Positions 1 through 63,379 of a stretch of DNA of 64,000 nt are shown here, piece by piece. The notes under the pieces are model-generated. The model worked only from the letters and a program-made list of their open reading frames with translations, did no database searches and was not told the origin of the DNA. A program made the translations under genes and the position numbers. Numbering within the stretch: position 1 is the first letter of the stretch; every line of letters begins with the position of its first letter. The DNA comes from Acidobacteriota bacterium (GTDB lineage Bacteria > Acidobacteriota > Aminicenantia > Aminicenantales > Aminicenantaceae): contig JAHIPL010000005.1 in the NCBI GenBank assembly GCA_018894615.1, forward strand, positions 1,062-65,061, read 5' to 3'.

Positions 1-1905
1 GATTCCAAGTGGGGTCTCAATCAGGGATTCGACACCTATTTTGACCGCTTTGACCTGAGCAAATACAAAACCATCTCCCTGGGCAATGTGCAGCGCCGCG
101 GTGACGAGGTCATCGATGAAACCCTGGCCTGGCTTGACCAGCACAAGGCCGGGCCCTTTTTTTCCTGGATTCATCTTTATGATCCCCACACCCCCTATGA
201 GCCGCCGCCGCCTTTTGATACCCGGTATTCCAATCGACCTTATGTGGGAGAGATCGCCTACACCGACTCCCAGTTGGCCCGCCTGTGGCTCTATCTGGAA
301 TCGCAGGGGCTCGTCGAAAACACCGTGCTGGTTTTTACCTCGGACCACGGTGAAAGCCTGGGAGAGCATCAGGAGAGCACCCATGGGTTTTTTATCTATC
401 AGGAAGGCATCCACGTTCCTCTTATTATAGTTACACCCGTTGAAAAATACCGGGGACACACGAACGGCTCCGTCGTCACCCTCGTCGACATCATGCCCAC
501 CGTTCTGGAAATGGCGGGATTGCCCTTGCCGGATCAGCTTCAGGGGCGCAGTCTTCTGCCTCTGATGACCGGGGAAAAAAAGTTCGAGGACTCCTTCGCC
601 TACGCCGAAACCTATTATCCCCGTTTCCATTACGGCTGGAGTGAACTGAAGAGCGTGCAGGACCGTCGGTTCAAGCTGATCATCGCTCCGGACCTCGAAC
701 TCTATGATCTGGACAACGATCCGGACGAAATGTCCAATCTCGTTGTTTCCATGCCGCAGGAAACACGGCGTCTTATGGAGTGGGCCAATTCCTTTCTGGA
801 GGAATCGGGGCAAAACGCCCTGGAGATGGACTACTCGAAAATGGACGAGGAGTCCCGCCAAAAGCTGGCCGCGCTTGGATATATCGGCACCTTTACGGAC
901 GCGTCCTCCCTTCAGGGCCGCCGGCTGGGTGATCCCAAGGAAAAAATCGTTGTCTTTAATCAGCTCTCCGAGGCGAAGGAAATGGGACTTCAGGGAGAAA
1001 CCGAAGAAGCCCTTCAGCTGATCGACCGCATCATCGCCGACGATCCCGATATCATCGACGCCTATTTCATGAAAGGCAACCTCTATTTCAAGGACAACCG
1101 GTTTCAGGAGGCCCTGGATACCTTCCGGATTGTTCTTGATAAAAAACCGGACGACGACTTCACGGCCATCAACATCGCCAACTCCCACATCCGTTTGGGC
1201 CAGCTGGACGAAGCGGAATCGTTCCTTACGGATTTTGTCAGAACGGTCCCTCCCGACTCTCAGATTTACCTCATCCTCGGAAATATCAGCTATATCCAGC
1301 GGGAATTTGACGAGGCGGAAAAACATTATTTGAAATGCATCGAACTCAATCCGGCATCCGCCTCCGCGTTCACCGCACTGGGCGGGATTTATGTCATCAC
1401 CGAACGCCTGGACGAAGCCAAATCCTTGCTCGATAAGGCCCTGGCCAGCAATCCTTCTCTACCCAATCTCCACTACAACTTCGCGCAGCTGTGGGAGGCG
1501 AAGAACGATCCGGCGGCCGCCGAGAAGGAATACAGGGTCGAGCTGGAAAATGTCCCTCACAATTTTCGAGCCAGCTTCAATCTGTCCCGTCTCTGCCGTC
1601 TTCAGAACCGCACGGACGAAGAGCAGGCCTTTCTGGAACAGACCGTGGAGTCCAATCCCCGCTTCCCCATGCCCTATTTGTATCTGGCGCGGATTTATCT
1701 CAACCGGAGTGAAAACTACCAGGAGGCGGTGGATCTTGTTCTGAAGGGCATCGAATTGAAGCCGGAGGAAAAGGACCTTCCTCTCGGATATTTTCTGCTG
1801 GCGGACCTCTACAACCGTCTTGGAAACCAGGTAAAATCCGAGGAATTTGCGGTTAAGGGGAAAGAGCTCGTCGATAAACTGCGCTCCAAAGGTCAAGCGG
1901 GCTGA
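1..1905 (+). CDS. Sulfatase-family hydrolase with C-terminal TPR repeats. 5'-truncated at the window edge: the frame is open from nt 1 and the listed GTG at 88 is internal.
   Basis: In-frame translation from nt 1 gives DSKWGLNQGFDTYFDRF. Sulfatase C-terminal-core motifs are present (FTSDHGE, LYDPHTPYEPP). About 300 aa of TPR-like repeats follow (AYFMKGNLYF, ALGGIYV, LARIYLN). Confidence 0.7.
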   Translation, partial: DSKWGLNQGFDTYFDRFDLSKYKTISLGNVQRRGDEVIDETLAWLDQHKAGPFFSWIHLYDPHTPYEPPPPFDTRYSNRPYVGEIAYTDSQLARLWLYLESQGLVENTVLVFTSDHGESLGEHQESTHGFFIYQEGIHVPLIIVTPVEKYRGHTNGSVVTLVDIMPTVLEMAGLPLPDQLQGRSLLPLMTGEKKFEDSFAYAETYYPRFHYGWSELKSVQDRRFKLIIAPDLELYDLDNDPDEMSNLVVSMPQETRRLMEWANSFLEESGQNALEMDYSKMDEESRQKLAALGYIGTFTDASSLQGRRLGDPKEKIVVFNQLSEAKEMGLQGETEEALQLIDRIIADDPDIIDAYFMKGNLYFKDNRFQEALDTFRIVLDKKPDDDFTAINIANSHIRLGQLDEAESFLTDFVRTVPPDSQIYLILGNISYIQREFDEAEKHYLKCIELNPASASAFTALGGIYVITERLDEAKSLLDKALASNPSLPNLHYNFAQLWEAKNDPAAAEKEYRVELENVPHNFRASFNLSRLCRLQNRTDEEQAFLEQTVESNPRFPMPYLYLARIYLNRSENYQEAVDLVLKGIELKPEEKDLPLGYFLLADLYNRLGNQVKSEEFAVKGKELVDKLRSKGQAG

Positions 1906-3325: not shown

Positions 3326-4669
3326 ATGCGCGTTGTCGATTCCCTGGAACAGGCTCTGTCCAATCTCTGGAAAAAAAAGCTGCGAACGTTTTTGACAACC
3401 TTCGGTGTCGTGATCGGCATCGGGGCTCTGGTGTCCATGATCTCCTTCGGACAGGGAGTCCAATACAATGTGACCGACCGGTTTCAAAAACTGGATCTCT
3501 TCAATTACATCACCGTTTTCCCGGCTGGGAAACAATCCCCGTTCTCTGGAGAACGAGCCGGATCTTCCGCCGAAAGCCCCAGGTCCGTGCTGGATGATGA
3601 TTCTTTGAAGGAGATAACGGCTCTCGAAGGGGTGGAGTCGGCCTTTCCCGAAGTTCGTTTTCCCGCCCGGATTCAATTTCGGGAGAAAACCCGATTCAGT
3701 CTGGTCCAGGTCATGCCCGCCGCCGTCGCCGCCACCGAACTGGTGAAACTGCGGGCGGGAGCATCTTTTGCGGACGATTATTCCCTTTCCCTCATCATCA
3801 GTGATTCCTTGTTGACCGAAATGGGAATCACCGACCCTGATTCGGTTATCGGCGAAGAGATCACACTTCTGACGCTGATGCTTGATTTAAGCCGTTTGAA
3901 CCTGTCGGACATGTCTTCACTGTTTCAAAACGGAAAACTTCCCTTTTCCGAGCAGAGTCACCGCTTCACCATTGCCGGAGTGGCGGAGCGCATGGGTTTC
4001 GGTGGTCCCACTCCGCTTCGCAGCGATGTTTATATCCCGTCCGGAACGGCAGCGGATATCCCGACCATATCGCTGACGAGCATCTGGGACTTTTTCCGTT
4101 CTTCCGGAAGCGCGGATGAATACTCCATGGTCAATGTCAAGGTGGATTCCCCCCGTGCTGTCGACCGTGTCAAGGCGTTTGCCGAAGAGAAGGGATTCCA
4201 GTCGTTCGCTCTCATCGACCAGCTGGAGGAAATCAGGACGGGTTTTGTCTTTATGGACATGTTCCTGGCGGCGGTGGGGATGATCGCTCTGGTCGTGGCG
4301 TCTCTTGGGATCGTCAACACCATGGTGATGGCTATCCTGGAACGAACCCGGGAAATCGGCATCATGAAGGCCGTCGGCGCCGGTGACGGGGATATTCGAA
4401 AAATATTTTTGTTTGAAGCGGGTCTTATCGGGCTGGCCGGAGGGGTGTTCGGCCTGTGCCTGGGCTGGATCGTAACAACGGCCATCAATTGGATCATCAA
4501 CGGTATCCTGGCCCGCCAGGGGATTCCTTTCGTCGACTATTTTTATTTTCCCCGTTGGTTGAATATGGGTTCCATTGTGTTTTCCATTCTTGTCAGCCTG
4601 ATCGCCGGGCTATATCCCATGCAGCGGGCGGCCCGGGTGGATCCGGTGGTGGCGCTCCGGCATGACTGA
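3326..4669 (+). CDS. ABC transporter permease, FtsX/MacB/LolE family
   Basis: Adjacent to the ATPase. It has an N-terminal TM, a large periplasmic domain and C-terminal FtsX-like TM segments (ILERTREIGIMKAVGA). Confidence 0.75.
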   Translation: MRVVDSLEQALSNLWKKKLRTFLTTFGVVIGIGALVSMISFGQGVQYNVTDRFQKLDLFNYITVFPAGKQSPFSGERAGSSAESPRSVLDDDSLKEITALEGVESAFPEVRFPARIQFREKTRFSLVQVMPAAVAATELVKLRAGASFADDYSLSLIISDSLLTEMGITDPDSVIGEEITLLTLMLDLSRLNLSDMSSLFQNGKLPFSEQSHRFTIAGVAERMGFGGPTPLRSDVYIPSGTAADIPTISLTSIWDFFRSSGSADEYSMVNVKVDSPRAVDRVKAFAEEKGFQSFALIDQLEEIRTGFVFMDMFLAAVGMIALVVASLGIVNTMVMAILERTREIGIMKAVGAGDGDIRKIFLFEAGLIGLAGGVFGLCLGWIVTTAINWIINGILARQGIPFVDYFYFPRWLNMGSIVFSILVSLIAGLYPMQRAARVDPVVALRHD

Positions 4670-35578: not shown

Positions 35579-35654
35579 GGGGCTGTAGCTCAGCTGGGAG
35601 AGCATTTGACTGGCAGTCAAAAGGTCGCCGGTTCGATCCCGGTCAGCTCCACCA
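35579..35654 (+). tRNA. tRNA-Ala (anticodon GGC), CCA encoded
   Basis: Cloverleaf folds by eye: 7-bp acceptor stem with the G3:U70 Ala identity pair, D-loop AGCTGGGA, anticodon loop CTGGCAG, T-loop TTCGATC, 3' ACCA followed by a T-tract. Confidence 0.85.
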
Positions 35655-53026: not shown

Positions 53027-53582
53027 TAAAGTCATGGAACATTTCGAAAATCCACGCAATGTCGGTGTGATCAAAGACGCCGACGGTGTGGGGGAAATCG
53101 GGAACGCCGTCTGCGGCGACATGATGAGCTTTTATATAAAAGTGAAGAACAATGTCCTGGAAGACGTCAAATTCAAGACGTTCGGCTGCGGTGCCGCCAT
53201 CGCCGTGTCCAGCATGGTCAGCGAAATGGCCATCGGTAAAACCGTGGAAGAGGCCTTAAAAATCACCAACCAGGATGTGGCCAAGGAATTGGGCGGGCTT
53301 CCGAAAAACAAGATGCACTGCTCCAATCTCGGCGCCGATGCGCTGCACAAGGCCATCGAGGACTTTCAGGGAAAAAACAGGGATGTGGGCAAAGCCGTCT
53401 CCAAAAAACCGGCGGCGGTGAAGGACACGTCCTGTCCCTTCTGTGAAGGCCCCATGGAAGGATTTGAGAAGTACTGCAAGGCCTGCCACATCGATTTTGA
53501 GGACTGCGTTTCCTGCGGGATGCCCCGAAAAACAAACGACGAGAAATGCCCCCACTGCGGAGCCACCCGGGTTCGGGTTTGA
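53016..53582 (+). CDS. Fe-S scaffold, IscU/NifU N-terminal domain with a Cys-rich C-terminal extension
   Basis: GNAVCGDMMSFYIKV, FKTFGCGAAIA and HCSNLGADAL are the three scaffold Cys motifs; C-terminal CPFCEG...CKAC...CVSCG...CPHCG. Confidence 0.85.
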   Translation: MYSDKVMEHFENPRNVGVIKDADGVGEIGNAVCGDMMSFYIKVKNNVLEDVKFKTFGCGAAIAVSSMVSEMAIGKTVEEALKITNQDVAKELGGLPKNKMHCSNLGADALHKAIEDFQGKNRDVGKAVSKKPAAVKDTSCPFCEGPMEGFEKYCKACHIDFEDCVSCGMPRKTNDEKCPHCGATRVRV

Positions 53583-53595
53583 CGGAAGGGAACCC

Positions 53596-54501
53596 ATGGA
53601 CAAAAATGACATGATGGACAGAATCCGGGAGTTGAAAAAGGACCGGAACGCGGTGATCCTCGTCCATAATTACCAGATCGGTGAAGTCCAGGATGCCGGT
53701 GATTTTATCGGTGACAGCCTGGAGTTGAGCCGGAAGGCGGCCCGTGTGAAGGAGGACGTGATCGTGTTCTGTGGTGTCCACTTCATGGCCGAAACCGCGG
53801 CCATCCTCGCCCCCGGGAAAACCGTCCTCATTCCCGACAGTTCGGCCGGCTGTCCCATGGCGGATATGATCACGGCCGAGGACATGGTCCAATGGAAGAA
53901 GAGGTATCCGGGCCGTAAATCTGTCTGTTATATCAACACATCGGCCGCCGTCAAGGCCGAATGCGACATCTGCTGCACGTCATCCAACGCCGAAAAAGTT
54001 GTGGACGGCCTCGAGGGAGAGGAAATCCTCTTTGCCCCGGACAAAAACCTGGCGGCCTGGGTCGCCCGCACCAGCTCAAAAAAAATCATCCCCTGGGACG
54101 GTTATTGTTACGTTCACAACAATATTCGCGCGGCCGACGTCCGGCGGAAAAAAGAGGAACATCCCGAAGCCGAAGTCTGGGTGCATCCCGAATGTCCGCC
54201 GGAAGTGATCGATCTGGCCGACAGGGTGCTCTCCACCGGCAAGATGGTGAAGGAAGCACGGGTCACGGACAGGAGCGTCATCATCGGTACGGAATCGGGA
54301 ATCGTCTACAGGCTCAAAAAGGAAAATCCCGGAAAGATCTTTTATCCCGTCAAGAATACGGCCGTCTGCCGAAACATGAAAAAAATCACTCTGGAAAAGG
54401 TTTTCCTGTCCCTGGAAAAAATGCAGTTCCATGTGACCGTTCCTCCCCTTATCGCCGAGCGGGCGAGAGGCGCCATCACCCGAATGGTGGACCTGGTTTA
54501 A
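53596..54501 (+). CDS. nadA: Quinolinate synthase NadA. The ORF track starts at 53443; ATG 53596 follows an RBS just after the scaffold gene stop.
   Basis: MDKNDMMDRIRELKKDRNAVILVHNYQ; conserved Cys ligands (GCPMA, CTSSNA, GYCYVHN). Confidence 0.85.
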   Translation: MDKNDMMDRIRELKKDRNAVILVHNYQIGEVQDAGDFIGDSLELSRKAARVKEDVIVFCGVHFMAETAAILAPGKTVLIPDSSAGCPMADMITAEDMVQWKKRYPGRKSVCYINTSAAVKAECDICCTSSNAEKVVDGLEGEEILFAPDKNLAAWVARTSSKKIIPWDGYCYVHNNIRAADVRRKKEEHPEAEVWVHPECPPEVIDLADRVLSTGKMVKEARVTDRSVIIGTESGIVYRLKKENPGKIFYPVKNTAVCRNMKKITLEKVFLSLEKMQFHVTVPPLIAERARGAITRMVDLV

Positions 54502-54504
54502 ACC

Positions 54505-55620
54505 ATGAAACGCGGATTTCGAATAGGAAAAATCGCCGGGATCGATATCCATGTCGATTCAAGCTGGTTCATCATCTTCGTCCTTTTTTCCTGGATGCTG
54601 GCGACAACCTATTTTCCCGGCAGTTTTCCGGGCGCCGGGCCGATCATTTACTGGCTGCTCGGCCTTGTCACCAGCCTTCTTGTTTTTGTTTCCGTCCTTA
54701 TCCATGAACTGGCCCATTCCCTCGTGGCCATCAAGCAGGGCGAAAAAGTCGACCGCATCACCCTGTTCATTCTGGGGGGAGTGGCCCAGATCACGGACGA
54801 GCCGAAGGAGCCCCTCTCCGAGTTTGTAATGGCGGTGGTCGGCCCCCTCACCAGTTTCATCCTGGCTTCATTTTTTTTCATGCTGTCTCTCCTTTTTTTC
54901 GGTGTCAGCGCGGCCCTGCGGTCGGCCCTGATCTATCTGGCCATCATCAACACCGTGCTGGGGCTGTTCAATCTGATCCCTGGATTTCCCATGGACGGCG
55001 GCCGGGTGCTGCGTTCCATCCTGTGGTCCATGACGGGGGATCTGCGCCGGGCGACCCGGATCGCCTCCTTTTCCGGCCAGGCCTTTTCCTTTCTCCTTGT
55101 TTTTCTTGGTATTCTTGAGGTTCTGCGCGGATCTTTATCCGGCCTCTGGCTGATTTTTGTGGGCTGGTTCCTTCAGAACGCCGCTGTCCGCGGCTACCGG
55201 CAGGTGGTGATGAAAACCCAGCTTCGCGGCACAAAAGCCAGGGATCTGATGGTGGAACACTTCACCGTCGTTGACGGAGGCATCACGGTTCAGATCCTTG
55301 TCGATCATTTTATTTTAAAGAAGAAGGAGCGGATTTTCCTTGTCGGAGGGGAGGACTATCTGCGCGGCATCGTCTGCACGGACGACGTCAAAAAAGTGCC
55401 GAAGATGCAGAGGGGGGAGACGTTTGTTCAGGACATCATGACACCGCGAGACAGGCTTGAGTTCGTCGGCCCCGATGAGGACGGTGAGGCGATTCTGAGG
55501 AAACTGGCCGCCCGGGATGTCAATCTGATTCCCGTCATGGACGAAGAAAAACTGATAGGTGTCATCTGTCAGAGCGATCTTCTTCGCTACATCCAGCTGA
55601 AGAATGAACTGAAATCCTGA
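54505..55620 (+). CDS. M50-family site-2 protease homolog with tandem CBS domains
   Basis: HELAHSLVA (HExxH) in TM helix; LIPGFPMDGGRVL second motif; C-terminal CBS pair. Confidence 0.8.
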   Translation: MKRGFRIGKIAGIDIHVDSSWFIIFVLFSWMLATTYFPGSFPGAGPIIYWLLGLVTSLLVFVSVLIHELAHSLVAIKQGEKVDRITLFILGGVAQITDEPKEPLSEFVMAVVGPLTSFILASFFFMLSLLFFGVSAALRSALIYLAIINTVLGLFNLIPGFPMDGGRVLRSILWSMTGDLRRATRIASFSGQAFSFLLVFLGILEVLRGSLSGLWLIFVGWFLQNAAVRGYRQVVMKTQLRGTKARDLMVEHFTVVDGGITVQILVDHFILKKKERIFLVGGEDYLRGIVCTDDVKKVPKMQRGETFVQDIMTPRDRLEFVGPDEDGEAILRKLAARDVNLIPVMDEEKLIGVICQSDLLRYIQLKNELKS

Positions 55621-55627
55621 GGATCGC

Positions 55628-56269
55628 ATGGAACAGATTAAAATAAGGACGGAGGCCATCGTCACCATTCTTCGCCGGACCGACCCGGAGAGCCGGACAG
55701 CCCTCCAATTCCGGAATCCGCTGCAGATTCTTGTCGCCACCATCCTGTCCGCTCAGTGCACGGACGCCAAGGTCAATGAAATAACTCCCGATTTGTTCGC
55801 CGCGTATCCGACCGCCGGGGCATTTGCCGCGGCCGATCCCGCCGATCTGGAGGAGCGGATTCACCCCACCGGCTTTTTCCGGCAGAAAACCAGAAGCATT
55901 ATCGGGGCCGCCCAAAAAATCGTGAGGGACTTCGGCGGCGAGGTTCCGGATTCCATGGCCGATCTGATCACCCTTCCCGGCGTGGCGCGGAAAACAGCCA
56001 ACATCGTCCTTTCCAGCGGTTACGGAAAAGCGGAAGGCATTGCCGTCGATACGCATGTCAAACGCCTGGCCGTCCGGCTCGGCCTCAGTTCCGAGACAAA
56101 TCCGGACAAGATCGAACAGGATCTCCTGCGGATCGTGCCCCGGGATGCCTGGCTGGATCTCAACTATCTTCTGGTCAACCACGGCCGGCAGATCTGTCAG
56201 GCCCGAAACCCGCGGTGCACGGAATGCCCCCTTCAGGCCCTCTGCCCTTCGGCCGATCCCCGGCCCTGA
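55628..56269 (+). CDS. nth: Endonuclease III
   Basis: HhH-GPD motif LPGVARKTANIVL; C-terminal 4Fe-4S Cys cluster CQARNPRCTECPLQALC. Confidence 0.9.
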   Translation: MEQIKIRTEAIVTILRRTDPESRTALQFRNPLQILVATILSAQCTDAKVNEITPDLFAAYPTAGAFAAADPADLEERIHPTGFFRQKTRSIIGAAQKIVRDFGGEVPDSMADLITLPGVARKTANIVLSSGYGKAEGIAVDTHVKRLAVRLGLSSETNPDKIEQDLLRIVPRDAWLDLNYLLVNHGRQICQARNPRCTECPLQALCPSADPRP

Positions 56270-56394
56270 CCTTTTCCGACAATATTCATCTTTTCCAATC
56301 CTCCTTCAACTGTGCTATAAAAAAAGCCCCGTCACTAAGAACATTGGAGAATTAATCCACAAAAAACGGAAAAGAACTAAAAAGGGTAACAGCC

Positions 56395-57402
56395 ATGGAA
56401 AAGGAAGCTCTGCTCTATGAAACCATCGCCGGGAATGTGTGCCTCTGTCGGCTGTGCGCCCACGGCTGCCGCATCGAGGACGGCTGCTCCGGTGTCTGCC
56501 GGGTGAGGGGAAACCGCGACGGGACGCTCTACTCCCAAGTGTACGGGGAACTCATCGCCACCCACGTTGATCCCATTGAAAAAAAACCGCTTTTTCATTT
56601 TTATCCCGGCAGCCTGTCCCTGTCCATCGCCTCCGCCGGATGCAATTTCCGCTGTTCGTTCTGCCAGAACTGGCAAATCTCCCAAGCTCCGCGCGAAGGC
56701 GGGACGCACACAGGTCCGGATACAAGCCCTGGTGAGGTGGTGGAAAACGCGGTCCGCCGGCGGTGCCGCAGCATCTCCTACACCTACACGGAGCCGACCA
56801 TCTTTTTTGAGTTTGCCCTGGACACGGCCCGGCAGGCGCAGGCGGCAGGCTTGGAAAACGTGTTTGTCACAAACGGCTACATGACCAAGGAAGCTCTGGA
56901 AACCATCCACCCGGCGCTCCATGCCTGCAATGTCGACCTCAAGTCCTTTCGCGATTCCTTCTATCGAACCATGTGCGGAGCCCGGCTTCAGCCCGTTCTG
57001 GATTCCATTCGCACCATGAAGGCCCTCGGCATCTGGCTGGAAATCACCACCCTGGTCATTCCCGGTCAAAACGATTCCGAGGCGGAATGGGCCGACATCG
57101 CCGGATTCATTCACGATCTAGACCCGGATATTCCCTGGCACCTCAGCCGGTTCCACCCCGACTACGAATACGACGCGGCCCCGGCGACGCCCCTGGAAAC
57201 CCTGCAGCGGGCCCATGCCGTCGGGCGCGGGGCCGGACTCCGGTATGTGTACATCGGAAATGCGCCGGGATTGGCGGAGGACACGGTCTGCCCGACCTGC
57301 GGAAAAGTCCTTGTCCGCCGTTCCGGATATTCCGTCGCCCTCGAACATCTGAAGGAGGGCGCCTGCGGGGCCTGCGGCGCCGTTATCGCCGGAAGATTCT
57401 GA
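56395..57402 (+). CDS. AmmeMemoRadiSam-system-type radical SAM enzyme (PflX/AmrS-like)
   Basis: N-terminal Cys-rich segment CRLCAHGCRIEDGCSGVCRVRGN, then radical SAM CNFRCSFCQNW; C-terminal CPTCG...CGACG. Confidence 0.75.
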   Translation: MEKEALLYETIAGNVCLCRLCAHGCRIEDGCSGVCRVRGNRDGTLYSQVYGELIATHVDPIEKKPLFHFYPGSLSLSIASAGCNFRCSFCQNWQISQAPREGGTHTGPDTSPGEVVENAVRRRCRSISYTYTEPTIFFEFALDTARQAQAAGLENVFVTNGYMTKEALETIHPALHACNVDLKSFRDSFYRTMCGARLQPVLDSIRTMKALGIWLEITTLVIPGQNDSEAEWADIAGFIHDLDPDIPWHLSRFHPDYEYDAAPATPLETLQRAHAVGRGAGLRYVYIGNAPGLAEDTVCPTCGKVLVRRSGYSVALEHLKEGACGACGAVIAGRF

Positions 57403-57496
57403 ACGGCGTCCGACCCTTCCCTGTCCGACCATTCCCTTCCCTTTCCCCTCCGATTTCGATATGATGAAGGGCTGTACCCCGGATTTTGAATCGCAC

Positions 57497-57925
57497 ATGG
57501 AGAGAGGATACGAGTTTCTGAAACACACCGCCGACGCCAAGTTCCGCGCCTGGGGACCGACCCTGGAAGAGGCATTCGAAGAGGCGGCATCGGCGATGCT
57601 GTCCCTGATGTGGGATGTCCGGATCCTCTCCCGAACGAGGACGGTGGAAAAGGAGTTCGAGGGAAAGGACCACCACCAGCTGCTCCTTCAATTTTTGGAG
57701 GAGATCCTTTATCTCCTCGATGCGCGGTCCTTTCTGGTGGTTCAGGCTCAGGTGGTGGAAATGGGTGAAACGAAGGGCCGGCCGTGGCTCCGCTCCCGCT
57801 ACTCCGGCATGATGAAAAACGACGAGACGGTCGTTCATGGTGAAGTCAAGGCCGTCACTTACAGCGAGATGGATATTCATCTGGATGATGCTAAAGCGGT
57901 TGTTCAGGTGGTTGTCGACCTCTAG
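57497..57925 (+). CDS. Archease (RtcB cofactor/chaperone). Start at MERGYEF; the ORF track starts at 57461.
   Basis: MERGYEFLKHTADAKFRAWGPTLEEAFEEAA matches the archease N-terminus; about 140 aa. Confidence 0.8.
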   Translation: MERGYEFLKHTADAKFRAWGPTLEEAFEEAASAMLSLMWDVRILSRTRTVEKEFEGKDHHQLLLQFLEEILYLLDARSFLVVQAQVVEMGETKGRPWLRSRYSGMMKNDETVVHGEVKAVTYSEMDIHLDDAKAVVQVVVDL

Positions 57926-57936
57926 CGGACGAAAAA

Positions 57937-59358
57937 ATGGAATTAAAGCGCATCAGCGACACCGCCTGGGAGATTCCGGCCCAGGGAGAAATGAAGGTTC
58001 CGGTCGTTCTTTTTTCCTCCCCCTCTCTGCTCGACACCATCCGGCAGGATAAAACTCTGACCCAGGCCCGGAATGTGGCCTGTCTGCCTGGGATTATTCG
58101 CGCTTCCTATGTGATGCCGGACGGACATCAGGGATATGGATTTCCCATCGGAGGCGTGGCCGCGTTCGACCGGAAAGAAGGCATCCTTTCTCCCGGGGGG
58201 GTAGGCTACGATATCAACTGCGGTGTGCGGCTTCTGCGGACGGATTGGAAAGCAAAAGACATTCTGCCTCACCTGGATTCCCTGCTGACGGGAATTTTTC
58301 AGGAAGTGCCGGCCGGGGTCGGCAAGAGCGGTCTGACCCGAGTCAAAGCCGGAGTGCTCAAGGATGTTTGCGTCCGGGGAGCGGAATGGGCCGTTGAAAA
58401 CGGGTACGGATGGGAAGAGGATCTACTGAAAACGGAAGAGGACGGCCGGATGCCGGGTGCGGACTCCGCTTTTCTCACCCAGAGAAGCATCGAGCGGGGA
58501 ATTCCCCAACTGGGGACCCTCGGAGCCGGGAACCATTTTTTGGAGATTCAAAAGGTCGTTCGGATTTATGACAGCGCCGCTGCTTCCGTTTTCGGAATTC
58601 GGGAGGTGGATCAGGTGGTCGTCATGATCCACTGCGGCAGCCGGGGGCTGGGTCATCAGGTCGCATCCGACTACATCCGGCAGATGGAAAACGCAAAGCA
58701 GAGCATTCCGCTTCCCGACCGGGAGCTCATCTGCGCTCCCATTCACTCGGAACTGGGCCGCCGCTACTTCAAATCCATGGCCGCCGCAGTCAACTTCGCC
58801 TTTGCCAACCGGCAGATGATCACCCACCGGGTGCGTACGGTATTCGAGAAAAATATGGGGACCTCGGACGGAATGAACCTGGTGTACGATGTCTGTCACA
58901 ATGTGGCCAAGTTCGAAACACATGAAATCGACGGGGAATCGAGGTCGCTGTGCGTCCACCGGAAGGGGGCCACCCGAAGCTTCGGCCCGGGACGGGATGA
59001 GGTGCCTGAAGCCTACCGGTCCATTGGACAACCCGTCCTCATTCCCGGGAGCATGGGGACGGCTTCTTATATTCTCGTCGGCACTGAGAAAGCGGAAAGC
59101 CTGAGTTTCGGGTCCACGGCGCACGGGGCCGGGAGATTGATGTCCCGCCATGAGGCCGCACGCCGCTTTCGCGGCGAGGAGGTGAAAAAGGAAATGGAGG
59201 CTCGCGGCATCTCCCTGCGGTTTACCGGATGGAAAGGCGTGGCGGAAGAAGCGGCGGGAGCCTACAAGGATGTGGAGGAGGTGGTGGATGTGTCCCACCG
59301 CGCCGGTCTCGGGCGGCTCGTCGCCCGCGTGGAACCCATCGGGGTCATGAAGGGATAA
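57937..59358 (+). CDS. rtcB: RNA-splicing ligase RtcB
   Basis: GHQGYGFPIGGVAAFD, GVGYDINCGV, GAGNHFLEIQ and HGAGR metal/GTP-binding motifs; 473 aa. Confidence 0.95.
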   Translation: MELKRISDTAWEIPAQGEMKVPVVLFSSPSLLDTIRQDKTLTQARNVACLPGIIRASYVMPDGHQGYGFPIGGVAAFDRKEGILSPGGVGYDINCGVRLLRTDWKAKDILPHLDSLLTGIFQEVPAGVGKSGLTRVKAGVLKDVCVRGAEWAVENGYGWEEDLLKTEEDGRMPGADSAFLTQRSIERGIPQLGTLGAGNHFLEIQKVVRIYDSAAASVFGIREVDQVVVMIHCGSRGLGHQVASDYIRQMENAKQSIPLPDRELICAPIHSELGRRYFKSMAAAVNFAFANRQMITHRVRTVFEKNMGTSDGMNLVYDVCHNVAKFETHEIDGESRSLCVHRKGATRSFGPGRDEVPEAYRSIGQPVLIPGSMGTASYILVGTEKAESLSFGSTAHGAGRLMSRHEAARRFRGEEVKKEMEARGISLRFTGWKGVAEEAAGAYKDVEEVVDVSHRAGLGRLVARVEPIGVMKG

Positions 59359-59427
59359 ACAGTAGGAAATGAGCGGAGGAGAAACAAACCGTGTGGGCCC
59401 GGAAAAACGGACCGCACAGGACCGGAG

Positions 59428-60978
59428 GTGACGTTGAAAGTGATATTGGCCGGATACAACATCGACAGCGAGGTGATCGAGGAGCTGAAAAAGACCCACC
59501 CGGAGCGCTCGGATATCACCCCGGAAACACTGTCGGCGGCCTATGCCCGCATTTCGAGAGACCCCCGGCCCGTTTACGAGCTTCGAGCCGCCGCCCGGGA
59601 GGAGGTCGATAAGGCCCGCCGGTCCAATCAGACCATCATCTTCAAAATGGGCCATCATTCCGTGGCAGAACACGCCGTGTTCAATTTTGATATTCTGGGC
59701 ATCAGCCGGCTCGCGATTGAAGAGGTGGAGCACTTCCGTCTCGCTTCATTCACTGAAAAATCACAGCGGTATATCACGTTGGAGGATGATTTTGTCATTC
59801 CGGCGGAGATCAAGGCGTCCGGCAGGGAAAAAATATTTGTAGAAACCGTTCGGGCCCAGAACGCCCTTTATCACACACTCTATGTCAGCCTGAAACCATT
59901 CATTTTTGAAACCCATGCGGACCTGGCGGCAGACCGGAAAAACCACTCCGTCCTGGACGGGTGGGCCAAAGAGGACGCCCGCTATATCGTTTCCCTCGCT
60001 ACCGGGGGGCAGCTGGGCATGACATGCAATGCGCGGAGCCTGGAATACATGATCCGCCGGTTTTCCGGGAGCTGTACTGCTGAAATCACCGAGCTCAACC
60101 GGAAGCTCCACGATCTGGCTAAGGCCGTCGCTCCCTCCATCCTTCTTTTCACCGAACCCAATCCGTTTGACGTAAAAACCTATTCGGACCTCATGGCCGC
60201 CGCACCCGCTTTTGGTCCGGCGGATGATTCTGAAGCCGAAACCGATGTGCGGCTTGTGGATTTCACTCCCGGCGCCGACGAGAAGGTGCTGAGCGCGCTC
60301 CTTCATTCCGTGTCGGACAGGTCTTTTGACGACTGCCTGGAAGCCGTCCGTGCGCTTTCAGGTGAAAAAAAGAAAAATCTCATAAAAAAGGCCTTTCGCC
60401 GCATGGAATTTTTTGATTCCGTCCCGCGTGAATTTGAACACGCCCGGCTGACCTATGACCTTGTCATTTCGGCCTCCTGCTTCGCTCAGCTCAAGCGCCA
60501 CCGCATGGCGACCATCACCGCCCAGGCCTATGACCCGAGTCTGGGAGTCACCGTGCCTCCCTCCATTCGGGCCGTCGGATTGGAGGGGGTCTTCATGGAG
60601 ATGATTGAACGGACCAACAGGGTGTATTATGACCTGGAGAAGCATGCGGGGCGGGCGGCGGCCTATCTTCTGACCAATTCCCACCGCAAAAGGGTGCTGC
60701 TGGAAGTCAACGCCCGGGAACTCTATCACATCAGCCGGCTTCGGGAAGATCCGACGGCGCAGTGGGACATCCGGAAAATCACCCGTTCCATGACCGGAGC
60801 GGCGAAAAAAGCCATGCCGCTTGTGTGCCTGCTGATCGGGGGAAAGAATGATTTTTCACAGATTTATGAGAACGTGTTCGGAACAAAACCGACCCTTTTC
60901 CCGCCTCCGGACATCCGCCCCCGGACCTTCCCTCTGTCGGAGGGAGAAATCCCGGAGGACATATCCGACACGAAGTAA
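59428..60978 (+). CDS. Tandem (fused double-domain) ThyX-like flavin-dependent thymidylate synthase homolog
   Basis: Domain 1: GHHSVAEHAVF...HFRLASFTEKSQRY...NARSLEYMIRRF. Domain 2: FEHARLTYDL...LKRHRMATITAQAY...VNARELYHISRLREDPTAQWDIR. Both align to the ThyX core (FEH, RHR-x7-S-x-RY, NARSL, AQWEI). Confidence 0.6.
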   Translation: MTLKVILAGYNIDSEVIEELKKTHPERSDITPETLSAAYARISRDPRPVYELRAAAREEVDKARRSNQTIIFKMGHHSVAEHAVFNFDILGISRLAIEEVEHFRLASFTEKSQRYITLEDDFVIPAEIKASGREKIFVETVRAQNALYHTLYVSLKPFIFETHADLAADRKNHSVLDGWAKEDARYIVSLATGGQLGMTCNARSLEYMIRRFSGSCTAEITELNRKLHDLAKAVAPSILLFTEPNPFDVKTYSDLMAAAPAFGPADDSEAETDVRLVDFTPGADEKVLSALLHSVSDRSFDDCLEAVRALSGEKKKNLIKKAFRRMEFFDSVPREFEHARLTYDLVISASCFAQLKRHRMATITAQAYDPSLGVTVPPSIRAVGLEGVFMEMIERTNRVYYDLEKHAGRAAAYLLTNSHRKRVLLEVNARELYHISRLREDPTAQWDIRKITRSMTGAAKKAMPLVCLLIGGKNDFSQIYENVFGTKPTLFPPPDIRPRTFPLSEGEIPEDISDTK

Positions 60979-61094: not shown

Positions 61095-61787
61095 TTGAAG
61101 ACCGTTCGCTGGAAGGAGATCGAGATGACGCGGACAAGAAAAACGATGCGACGCATGATGAGCGCTGTTTTGATCCTGACGGCGAGCTGCGCCTCATTCG
61201 GGCTTTCGGCGCGGGGAGGAGAAGAGGGTCTTGATTCACGGGTCAGAGCCTTTCTGGAAACTCACGATTGGGGAAGAGGGGACATGAATGTCCCTGCCGT
61301 CGACGGACAGACCCTCCACGACATCATCGTCCAAAACGGCTACACGCGGGCGCTCGAGATCGGAACCTCGACCGGCCATTCCGGCATCTGGATCGCCTGG
61401 GCGCTGAGTAAAACCGGGGGGAAACTGATCACCATCGACATCGATAAGCGGCGGCATGAGGAGGCCGTGAAAAATTTTAAAAAAGCGGGGCTTTCGAAAT
61501 ACATCGATGCCCGTCTCGGCGACGCCCACACCCTCGTGCCCGAACTGGAAGGGCCTTTCGACTTCGTTTTCAGCGATGCGGACAAGAACTGGTACAAGAA
61601 CTATTTCATCGCCGTTTTTCCCAAGCTCGAAGTCGGGGGATGCTACACCACCCATAATGTTTACGAGCGGTGGGGCCGGGGAAGGGGCGGCGGGTATCTG
61701 GACTATCTGAAAAGCCTGCCCAACATGGAAACCGCGGTGGATGAACGGGGCGGCGGCCTGGCCGTCAGCTACAAAAAAACGAAATAA
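61095..61787 (+). CDS. Class I SAM-dependent O-methyltransferase (family 3, caffeoyl-CoA OMT-like) with N-terminal signal/lipoprotein-like peptide
   Basis: LEIGTSTGHSGIWIAWAL SAM-binding motif I; downstream DFVFSDADKNWY; N-terminal MRRMMSAVLILTASCASFG. Confidence 0.75.
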   Translation: MKTVRWKEIEMTRTRKTMRRMMSAVLILTASCASFGLSARGGEEGLDSRVRAFLETHDWGRGDMNVPAVDGQTLHDIIVQNGYTRALEIGTSTGHSGIWIAWALSKTGGKLITIDIDKRRHEEAVKNFKKAGLSKYIDARLGDAHTLVPELEGPFDFVFSDADKNWYKNYFIAVFPKLEVGGCYTTHNVYERWGRGRGGGYLDYLKSLPNMETAVDERGGGLAVSYKKTK

Positions 61788-61933
61788 CACTCGTTCTCCA
61801 TCCCCGGCGATTTGAATTTCTTTGGATGATCCGCGAGATTCTGCCATCATCGAAATTTCCGTTCTTCGGCGGAGTTGACAATCCGTTTCCTGCGTACTAT
61901 AGACGTACTGTAATTCTTCTGAGGAGGGAGAGC

Positions 61934-63379
61934 ATGCGTCTTATATCCATTCGAATCCTTTCCGCGGCCTTTATGGTTCTTCTGGTTTTAGGCTGCCGCC
62001 CCGGAGAGGACGCAAAAAAAAGTGAACCGGCCGTCTCGGGAGAGCAGCAAGAGACCCGAGCTCAGTTCGACGAACGGATGGAGTGGTGGCGGGAAGCCCG
62101 ATTCGGGCTGTTCCTTCACTGGGGACTTTATGCCATTCCGGCCGGAGAGTGGAAAGGGGAAACCAATCATGCCGAGTGGATCCTGCAGACCGCACAGATC
62201 CCGGTGGATGAATATGTGCGGTTCGCCCCGCAGTTCAACCCTGTGGAGTTCGACGCCGCCGACTGGGTCCGAATGGCCAAAGAGGCAGGAATGAAATACA
62301 TCGTCATCACCTCCAAGCATCACGACGGATTCTGCCTGTTCGATTCCGAAATGACGGACTTCGATGTGATGGATGCCACACCTTTCAAGCGGGACATTCT
62401 GAAGGAACTGGCCGAGGAGTGTCGAAAACAGGGGCTGAAAATGTGCTGGTACCACTCCATTATGGACTGGCATCACCCGGACTACCTGCCCCGCCGCTCC
62501 TGGGAAAACCGGGCGGCGGATGATGCTGATTTTGACCGTTACGTCGATTACATGAAGGCCCAGGTGAAAGAGCTGATCACAAACTACGGGGAAATCGGTG
62601 TGTTGTGGTTCGACGGGGAGTGGGAGAAGACCTGGACACCGGAGCGGGGGCTTGACCTTTACTGCTACGTCCGCTCCCTTCAGCCGAACATCATCATCAA
62701 CAACCGGGTGGGCAAGGGACGGGCCGGTATGGCGGGCACCTATGATCCGGGAAGCGCCTCGGGTGATTTTGGAACACCGGAGCAGGAGATCCCGGCCACC
62801 GGGCTGGACTATGACTGGGAAACCTGCATGACCATGAACGATTACTGGGGCTACAACAGGAATGATCCCAACTGGAAGTCCGAAATCGACCTCATTCAAA
62901 AACTGTCCGACATCGCGAGCAAGGGGGGCAACTTTCTGCTCAACGTCGGACCCACGGCTGAAGGATTGTTCCCTCCGGAAAGCGTGGAGCGCCTGGCCGC
63001 CATCGGCCGCTGGATGAAAACAAACGGGGACAGCATTTACGGAACGACGGCCAGCCTGTTTGAGAAGCTGGATTGGGGGCGGTCCACCACCAAAGGACGT
63101 ACGCTCTACTTCCATGTGTTCGACTGGCCCGCCGACGGCCGCCTGGTCGTTCCCGGCCTGCTGACCAAGGCGGACAGAGCCGTTCTCCTTTCCTCTTCCG
63201 GCGAACCACTGGACATGTTTGTTGAGGACGACCATGCGGTCATCACGGTTCCCGCCGAGGCACCCGACAAGGCCGTGTCCGTCGTCGCCTGCACCTTTGC
63301 TTCCGAACCCGAGGTGATGCGATCGCCGGATATCGCACGGGTGATTCCTCCCTCTATTCCGGTCCGGGTTTTGAGATGA
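61934..63379 (+). CDS. Alpha-L-fucosidase (GH29), lipoprotein. Start at MRLISIRIL after the RBS GGAGGGAG; the ORF track starts at 61826.
   Basis: GH29 motifs FGLFLHWGLY and ITSKHHDGFCLFDS; lipobox LLVLGC. Confidence 0.85.
   Translation: MRLISIRILSAAFMVLLVLGCRPGEDAKKSEPAVSGEQQETRAQFDERMEWWREARFGLFLHWGLYAIPAGEWKGETNHAEWILQTAQIPVDEYVRFAPQFNPVEFDAADWVRMAKEAGMKYIVITSKHHDGFCLFDSEMTDFDVMDATPFKRDILKELAEECRKQGLKMCWYHSIMDWHHPDYLPRRSWENRAADDADFDRYVDYMKAQVKELITNYGEIGVLWFDGEWEKTWTPERGLDLYCYVRSLQPNIIINNRVGKGRAGMAGTYDPGSASGDFGTPEQEIPATGLDYDWETCMTMNDYWGYNRNDPNWKSEIDLIQKLSDIASKGGNFLLNVGPTAEGLFPPESVERLAAIGRWMKTNGDSIYGTTASLFEKLDWGRSTTKGRTLYFHVFDWPADGRLVVPGLLTKADRAVLLSSSGEPLDMFVEDDHAVITVPAEAPDKAVSVVACTFASEPEVMRSPDIARVIPPSIPVRVLR

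Follow-up and report, generated by a model that had tools for sequence, protein, structure and literature searches.

A fused tandem ThyX in an Aminicenantia contig, with catalytic residues partitioned between its two halves

The 64-kb window analyzed here (64,000 nucleotides (nt) of contig JAHIPL010000005.1, assembly GCA_018894615.1, assigned to an Acidobacteriota bacterium) contains a gene, at positions 59428..60978 of the plus strand, that encodes a fused tandem form of ThyX, the flavin-dependent thymidylate synthase (FDTS). The 516 amino acid (aa) product consists of two ThyX domains that have lost different parts of the catalytic residue set, and the same division of residues between the N-terminal half (N-half) and the C-terminal half (C-half) recurs throughout a large family of relatives. 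We consider it likely, with a probability of about 0.7, that the protein is a tandem-type FDTS that makes deoxythymidine monophosphate (dTMP) and has two composite active sites per dimer of chains.

The two-domain organization was detected by profile comparison, by comparison of the halves with each other and by structure prediction. The Pfam profile PF02511 (Thy1; cutoff 24.8 bits) matches the protein twice, and each half is recognized on its own along essentially the full profile: the N-half (aa 3-266) covers positions 8-191 and scores 113.9 bits, and the C-half (aa 267-516) covers positions 1-190 and scores 93.0 bits. Against the NCBIfam thyX equivalog TIGR02170 (cutoff 87.9 bits), the protein scores 128.8 bits. 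Aligned to each other, the two halves are 25% identical (E = 4e-8). The N-terminal ThyX domain covers aa 31-237 (59518..60138, plus strand) and the C-terminal domain aa 275-464 (60250..60819, plus strand). In the AlphaFold2 monomer model (predicted local distance difference test score (pLDDT) 92.9; predicted template modeling score 0.90), the two domains are confidently predicted to pack together as a pseudo-dimer. A Foldseek search with this model retrieved only ThyX structures, the best being M. tuberculosis ThyX with a template modeling score of 0.74-0.76. The matches in the PDB were all single-domain ThyX chains, and no tandem ThyX structure was found there up to April 2026. The initial annotation, which was made from the sequence alone, had aligned both halves to the ThyX core, and these comparisons bear it out. 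No affinity was found with TrmFO/RlmFO, the GidA-like Rossmann-fold flavoproteins with a catalytic Cys: the only Pfam and NCBIfam family detected is Thy1, and the only fold is that of ThyX.

To map the catalytic motifs, both halves, together with 40 relatives of each, were aligned to T. maritima ThyX (TM0449; the reference sequence is identical to that of PDB 1kq4). Conservation was then scored in an alignment of 62 diverse tandem relatives that are 35-52% identical to the window protein (alignment A1), with positions given in T. maritima numbering unless stated otherwise. In the N-half of the window protein, the position of the RHR motif is occupied by H102-F103-R104, of which 102 and 103 are variable in the family, and this degenerate motif is followed by an intact loop, S107-x4-S112-Q-R114-Y115 (the segment from H102 to Y115, including E110-K-S112, maps to 59731..59772, plus strand). 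In the C-half, Q354 and the complete R357-H358-R359 motif are followed by a shortened loop, M-A-T-I-T-A365-Q-A367-Y368 (60487..60531, plus strand), where a two-residue deletion has removed the equivalents of E86-L87, and S88 and R90 are replaced with A365 and A367, respectively. The tyrosine of this loop, Y368 (= Y91), is retained here and in 60 of the 62 family members. The elements closer to the C-terminus of each domain are divided as well. The N-half has NARS at 201-204 followed by S215-C-T-A-E-I, with Q180 replaced by T/L and W181 by A, and AQWDI (A444-Q445-W446-D447-I448), encoded together with R439 (= R174) at 60742..60771 on the plus strand, is present in the C-half only, which adds to the complementarity of the halves. 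Other residues are specific to the N-half, namely H76 (= H53; 59653..59655, plus strand), which is a histidine in all 62 N-halves and V, P or A at the corresponding C-half position, as well as E182 and R185 (= E144 and R147; 59971..59982, plus strand), which are invariant only in the N-halves (62/62). The contiguous signature RHR-x7-S(-x-R-Y) is found within neither domain and is complete only across both halves.

The central claim of the initial annotation, that motifs are lost in a complementary fashion in the two halves, is thus upheld, half by half, in 62/62 relatives and in 40/40 members of the distant clade described below. Its details have to be amended. HFR in place of RHR and the SQRY of the first half were read correctly, but the spacing is S-x4 rather than S-x3. 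The second half indeed keeps RHR and has lost the serine and the arginine, but not the tyrosine, which had been listed as missing. The C-terminal elements NARS and AQW(D/E)I had been assigned to both halves; NARS in the first and AQWDI in the second stand, but the first half reads SCTAEI instead of the latter motif.

Across the 62 relatives, R28, S30, H53, E86, S88, R90, E144 and R147 are invariant exclusively in the N-half, and Q75, R78, H79, R174 and Q180 exclusively in the C-half, where W181 is also present in 60 of the 62. Both halves keep E58, R80, Y91 (61/62 in the N-half), N163 and R165. Translated into the numbering of the window protein, the positions conserved in 62/62 sequences are R41, S43, H76, E81, R104, E110, S112, R114, E182, R185 and R203 in the N-half (Y115, 61/62) and E337, Q354, R357, H358, R359, R439 and Q445 in the C-half (W446, 60/62). 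The losses mirror this pattern. In the N-half, the positions of Q75, R78 and H79 are variable, R74 is replaced by Glu in 59 of the 62 sequences, L173 is deleted, and the equivalent of R174 is an arginine in only 36. In the C-half, H53 is replaced by V/P/A, E86-L87 is deleted, S88 has become P/A/S, R90 has become P/D/N, and R147 has become D/E/A. The window protein carries every half-specific invariant of the 62 members, and each residue of the full catalytic and ligand-binding set (S30, H53, Q75, R78, H79, R80, E86, S88, R90, Y91, R147 and R174) is conserved in 62/62 or at least 60/62 sequences in one of the halves. We examined the possibility, raised in the initial annotation, that key flavin adenine dinucleotide (FAD)- and deoxyuridine monophosphate (dUMP)-binding residues are absent from both types of composite site. 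The FAD, dUMP and folate set is complete in one site type and almost entirely gone from the other.

The same N/C split was found, in a sharper form, in a clade from metagenome-assembled genomes (MAGs) of gut Oscillospiraceae whose members are only ~25% identical to the window protein (40/40 members). In this clade, the N-half equivalent of R174 is an alanine, and the C-half loop additionally lacks R90 and Y91. It departs from the pattern of the window protein at two key positions, with V at E86 and H at Q75. Because so distant a clade shows the same split, the conservation pattern indicates that the partition is ancient and under selection, rather than the outcome of drift in one gene.

The partition can be compared with the chain roles published for canonical ThyX, in which three monomers together form each active site, H53, located on 'monomer-3', stacks on the folate and flavin, and R78 stabilizes FADH- (PMC11940539). 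S88, R90 and Y91, carried by the mobile active-site loop, are essential residues of T. maritima ThyX, in which dUMP is activated by R174 (PMC8316439). The uracil pocket of PBCV-1 ThyX combines Q75 and R182 (= R174) of monomer A with S88/Q89 of monomer B; Q75, Q188 (= Q180), R90 and E152 (= E144) line one pocket at a subunit interface, and E152 lines the inhibitor pocket (PMC3498832). By our alignments, each PBCV-1 pocket residue is invariant in exactly the half that the composite-site model would predict. Given that Q75, R174 and Q180 are confined to the C-half, and S88, R90 and E144 to the N-half, the tandem family fits an arrangement where the C-half always acts as 'monomer A' and the N-half as 'monomer B'.

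In the proposed mechanism, two chains would form a pseudo-tetramer (N1, C1, N2, C2) resembling the canonical ThyX homotetramer. The C-half, in the role of the RHR/arginine donor, would provide Q75, R78-H79-R80, R174 and Q180/W181, which would stabilize the N1/C2=O of the flavin, polarize the uracil and wall the pocket. One N-half, in the role of the loop donor, would provide the mobile loop with E86, S88, R90 and Y91, and H53, S30, E144 and R147 would be contributed by N-halves, which also carry the folate-loop residues, as well. If H53 comes from a third monomer, as in the canonical enzyme, its donor would be the N-half of the other chain: with H53 present in N-halves only, D2 geometry requires that the loop donor and the H53 donor are the two N-halves, related by the sole true two-fold axis of the tandem dimer. 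A homodimer would thus have two complete sites (C + N + N'), each with one FAD, dUMP and methylenetetrahydrofolate and each reduced by NAD(P)H. The mirror sites (N + C + C'), in which the N-half would take the RHR role and the C-halves the loop and H53 roles, are left with hardly any of the functional residues and probably do not work. Synthesis of dTMP would proceed by ordinary ThyX chemistry, with one FAD per ~57 kDa chain. The suggestion in the initial annotation that the protein is a covalent pseudo-dimer with asymmetric, heterodimer-like composite sites is accordingly supported by the conservation pattern together with the published chain roles of the PBCV-1 and T. maritima enzymes.

Several points weigh against this reading. 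The dimer-of-tandems assembly and the choice of the intrachain interface are inferred, the AlphaFold2 model being that of a monomer only, and the chain roles of E144 and R147 come solely from the description of the PBCV-1 pocket, not from coordinates. The conservation of E58, N163 and R165 in both halves, and that of E98 in 59 of the 62 N-halves, suggests that the 'dead' sites may keep ligand binding or some other role. Finally, the source genome may encode another thymidylate synthase outside the 64 kb of the window, which, like the +/-10 kb regions of 80 related loci, contains no thyA, folA or second thyX.

Ordinary dTMP synthesis is, nevertheless, the most likely function of tandem ThyX, considering the complete composite site, the TIGR02170 score above the cutoff, the housekeeping contexts of the family, and reports on Chloroflexi and Acidobacteria with ThyX but no ThyA. 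Specifically, Chloroflexi other than Dehalococcoides have been reported to encode only a domain-duplicated ThyX, called 'not characterized', and no ThyA (Valas & Bourne 2009, PMC3224940), and in a COG census all 6/6 Acidobacteria and 6/6 Chlamydiae have ThyX but lack ThyA (PMC5954106). No tdk was found in the 64-kb window.

The strongest competing explanation, which we nonetheless regard as unlikely, is that tandem ThyX is a neofunctionalized ThyX-fold enzyme that applies the same flavin/folate chemistry to another substrate (uridine monophosphate (UMP), as PolB does, another nucleotide, or RNA) and is not the thymidylate synthase of the cell. Specificity-altered ThyX paralogs do exist, for example, PolB of polyoxin biosynthesis (PMC5954106, PMC7226160), neither half of the window protein has the contiguous RHR-x7-S signature, and, with 64 kb searched, the source genome could encode a second thymidylate synthase. 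However, the composite site shows no variation at any residue that contacts dUMP or acts in catalysis, the protein passes the equivalog cutoff, and the family occurs in housekeeping contexts in at least 566 species from many phyla. Chloroflexi are reported to have only the duplicated form, and one distant member of the family adjoins a dTMP-kinase-like gene. Neither does the locus resemble the nucleoside-antibiotic clusters in which PolB-type extra thyX genes are found: no such cluster and no modification cluster surrounds the gene, the neighbors of which are nadA, an M50/CBS protease, nth, a radical-SAM protein, archease, RtcB, an O-methyltransferase and a fucosidase. No evidence was found for nucleotide or RNA methylation, which the initial annotation had offered as an alternative function: the residues demonstrated to be important for making dTMP (S88, R90, Y91, R174, R78 and H53) are each invariant in one of the halves of a protein that exceeds the TIGR02170 cutoff and is encoded in a housekeeping context.

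Other explanations concern the degenerate sites. It is conceivable, if improbable, that tandem ThyX is an obligate half-of-sites enzyme whose degenerate pseudo-sites were recruited for another task, such as allosteric nucleotide sensing or a dedicated NAD(P)H/electron-donor site, which canonical ThyX does not have. If true, this would define a mechanistically distinct class of thymidylate synthases spread across Aminicenantia, Omnitrophota, Elusimicrobiota, gut Oscillospiraceae, DPANN archaea and, possibly, Chlamydia. That the degenerate pair of sites has acquired a new role of this kind, binding a regulatory nucleotide or NAD(P)H alone, with dTMP synthesis left to the other pair, seems unlikely. 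The 'dead' site does show lineage-specific conservation, with E98 in the N-half of the main family and Q, F, E and F within N-half positions 98-103 in 40/40 members of the gut clade, and canonical ThyX has no separate NADPH domain (PMC3498832). However, the conserved residues differ between the clades, a better fit to structural constraint than to a shared ligand site, and there is no direct evidence of any ligand.

Less probable still is an ordinary four-site ThyX in which all sites of the pseudo-tetramer work with substitute residues. Close relatives mostly have K or R at the N-half position of R78 and often K or R at the C-half position of R90; K, H or R is frequent at N-half position 102; and E58, R80, N163, R165 and Y91 are retained in both halves. 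In the diverse set, however, these substitute positions vary (K/H/S/R at position 102 of the N-half and P/D/N at position 367 of the C-half), and the second site type jointly lacks H53, S88, E86 (deleted), R147, Q75, H79, Q180 and W181, to which the gut clade adds the loss of R174, R90 and Y91. For the T. maritima enzyme, each of S88, R90, Y91 and R174 has been found critical by itself (PMC8316439).

Tandem ThyX is widespread, with thousands of protein clusters having this form. A word-index search yielded more than 5560 relatives, the best 120 of which are all 490-535 aa long. An exhaustive search of 50%-identity representatives gave 3509 matches, 461 of them with E-values below 1e-30, and nearly all of the best 150 are 450-570 aa long. 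Among species-representative genomes, at least 566 loci encode a tandem ThyX; the taxa among the loci listed include Aminicenantes/Acidobacteriota, Omnitrophota, Elusimicrobiota, Syntrophaceae, WOR-3, Planctomycetia, Margulisiibacteriota and one Methanosarcinales MAG, and one 50%-identity representative is annotated as coming from Nanoarchaeota. The tandem architecture was found in the best 120 word-index matches, in nearly all of the best 150 representatives and in all 80 genome loci. Among the matches listed, the closest relatives of the window protein come from Aminicenantia MAGs, with a best identity of 64%. Named entries of the family are nearly always labeled 'FAD-dependent thymidylate synthase'. 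The notion that the fusion is an assembly or annotation artifact, or a decaying pseudo-enzyme, for which one seemingly half-size homolog (P0251) had hinted at split genes, is effectively refuted by the 10-N scaffold gap behind that case, by uninterrupted 450-570 aa open reading frames (ORFs) in thousands of independent assemblies and by dozens of invariant residues that attest to strong purifying selection.

The case in question, P0251 and an adjacent Thy1 gene (250 and 253 aa), was considered as a 'split' two-gene form that could represent an evolutionary intermediate, and was rejected: the interruption, at 3751-3762 of the extracted locus (GCA_023228195.1, JALOBR010000045.1), is a run of 10 N, that is, a scaffolding gap. 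The ThyX proteins of phages are single-domain, the sole tandem match being on an unverified scaffold. This human-feces scaffold, labeled 'UNVERIFIED Bacteriophage sp.' (MT835736.1, 15006-19211), contains an ORF (1435-2811) for a 458-aa tandem ThyX that is oriented divergently from a dTMP-kinase-like ORF (610-1287, minus strand; identity read by eye from the sequence). The cluster to which this ThyX belongs has 2337 member sequences, with relatives in gut Oscillospiraceae MAGs, such as Ca. Fimenecus, which makes a bacterial origin of the scaffold more probable than a phage one.

In the literature on tandem, duplicated or fused ThyX, the only mention found was that of Valas & Bourne 2009 (PMC3224940). 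The initial annotation had asked whether tandem proteins of this type are already characterized as ordinary thymidylate synthases. The architecture is indeed widespread, annotated and on record since 2009, but in that report it is called uncharacterized. In the searched literature, there seems to be no description of how the residues are divided between the halves or of the two sites that would result. The architecture itself is common and already annotated, and the route to it, duplication, fusion and subfunctionalization of shared sites, is a familiar one.

The ORF at 59428..60978 is open throughout, with 516 codons counted from GTG 59428 and the stop codon included in these coordinates. A Shine-Dalgarno-like GGAGG at 59424-59428 and an alternative start, TTG at 59434-59436 (together 59424..59436, plus strand), are apparent in the sequence, with the TTG 5 nt 3' of the GGAGG. 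An identical public protein, P0001, has been called from TTG 59434 and is 514 aa long, and the N-terminal consensus of the tandem family is MKVxLAGYN. The GGAGG spacing, the P0001 gene call and the family consensus favor the TTG, which is probably the true start (514 aa). The ORF does begin with GTG, as initially annotated, but this codon is the less likely start. A scan for promoters and terminators around the gene detected no signal exceeding the shuffled expectation. At the other end, relatives span just 95-96% of the window ThyX used as the query. The last 25 residues (PPPDIRPRTFPLSEGEIPEDISDTK; aa 492-516, 60901..60975, plus strand) are not matched by any relative, and disorder is predicted for them (pLDDT 44-60). 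Opposite rtcB and the beginning of thyX runs a 436-aa antisense ORF (58423-59733, minus strand). Its 'homologs' in 36 loci merely mirror the conservation of the sense genes, and it is therefore unlikely to be a gene.

Directly upstream of thyX, as stated in the initial annotation, is rtcB (57937-59358, plus strand; Pfam RtcB, 564 bits), which ends ~70 nt before the thyX ORF. It is the last gene of a same-strand run (53443-59358) consisting of nadA, an M50 protease with a CBS domain, nth (endonuclease III), a radical-SAM protein, archease and RtcB. The radical-SAM protein is probably of the AmmeMemoRadiSam type, and the radical-SAM-archease-RtcB trio looks like an RNA-repair module. The order nadA-M50/CBS-nth-radical-SAM-archease-rtcB-thyX is kept in ~30 loci of Aminicenantia MAGs (identically in L005, for example), often with 1-3.5 kb inserted between rtcB and thyX. 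It is missing in nearly all other sampled phyla, where only one Omnitrophota locus (L058) has the archease-rtcB pair upstream. This synteny places the window in or near Aminicenantia. A functional link between thyX and rtcB/archease was considered and rejected, the association being lineage synteny within Aminicenantia only. All-vs-all clustering of the neighbors in the 80 loci recovered this synteny alone, with no recurrent biosynthetic neighbors, and a search of the same loci for conserved nucleotide-metabolism neighbors (tmk, dut, dcd, glyA, thyA and folA) found none except one glyA. Downstream of thyX are a class-I O-methyltransferase with a seeming N-terminal signal or anchor sequence (61095-61787) and an alpha-L-fucosidase (61826-63379). 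Homologs of the former were found in 0/80 related loci and of the latter in 2/80, so the synteny ends at thyX. The sole RNA gene identified by Rfam and ARAGORN in the window is tRNA-Ala(GGC) at 35579-35654.

ThyX serves as a model of unusual flavin chemistry and is also a target for antibacterial drugs, and the structural and kinetic studies on it that we found deal with single-domain homotetramers with four identical sites only. Fusion of ThyX in a very large and phylogenetically wide group amounts to a natural experiment that assigns residues to subunit roles, and the partition predicts a two-site enzyme with a single FAD for each 57-kDa chain. It may also explain the strongly divergent appearance that some ThyX sequences, those of chlamydiae among them, have in alignments and phylogenies. 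Annotation rules that demand RHR-x7-S within a single domain would misclassify both halves as inactive. Tandem ThyX does not reveal a new pathway or system.

Among known systems, the T. thermophilus Thy1 (PDB 6J61), one of the structural matches of the window ThyX, is likewise longer than canonical enzymes, but its extra part is described as a C-terminal domain appended to a 270-aa chain rather than another copy of the ThyX domain. PolB of polyoxin biosynthesis shares the ThyX fold and flavin/folate-dependent C5-methylation; it is, however, a single-domain protein encoded as a second copy beside a normal ThyX in an antibiotic cluster, and prefers UMP, none of which applies to the window ThyX. 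The Chloroflexi duplicated ThyX (PMC3224940) has domain duplication in common with the window protein, and was reported without a residue analysis. The C. trachomatis ThyX has been purified as an active enzyme. This enzyme is reportedly the subject of a 2005 study by Griffin et al. in the Journal of Biological Chemistry and was used by Basta et al. in 2012. It is probably ~529 aa long, which would make it tandem; in that case, a tandem ThyX would already have been proven to work as a thymidylate synthase. Chlamydial ThyX sequences are unusually divergent (PMC6171736).

With the canonical ThyX homotetramers, represented by T. maritima TM0449, M. tuberculosis Rv2754c and PBCV-1 A674R, the window protein shares the fold, the full residue set when both halves are counted, and composite sites. 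In H. pylori ThyX, the active sites are, reportedly according to Leduc et al., shared between monomers, the subunits being separate polypeptides. Sharing of this kind allows two domains with different defects to make up one complete site. In contrast to canonical ThyX, the window protein fuses two domains into one chain, splits the residues between them and has a C-half loop that is 2 residues shorter, and, whereas the canonical tetramer has four identical sites, it is predicted to have two sites per four domains.

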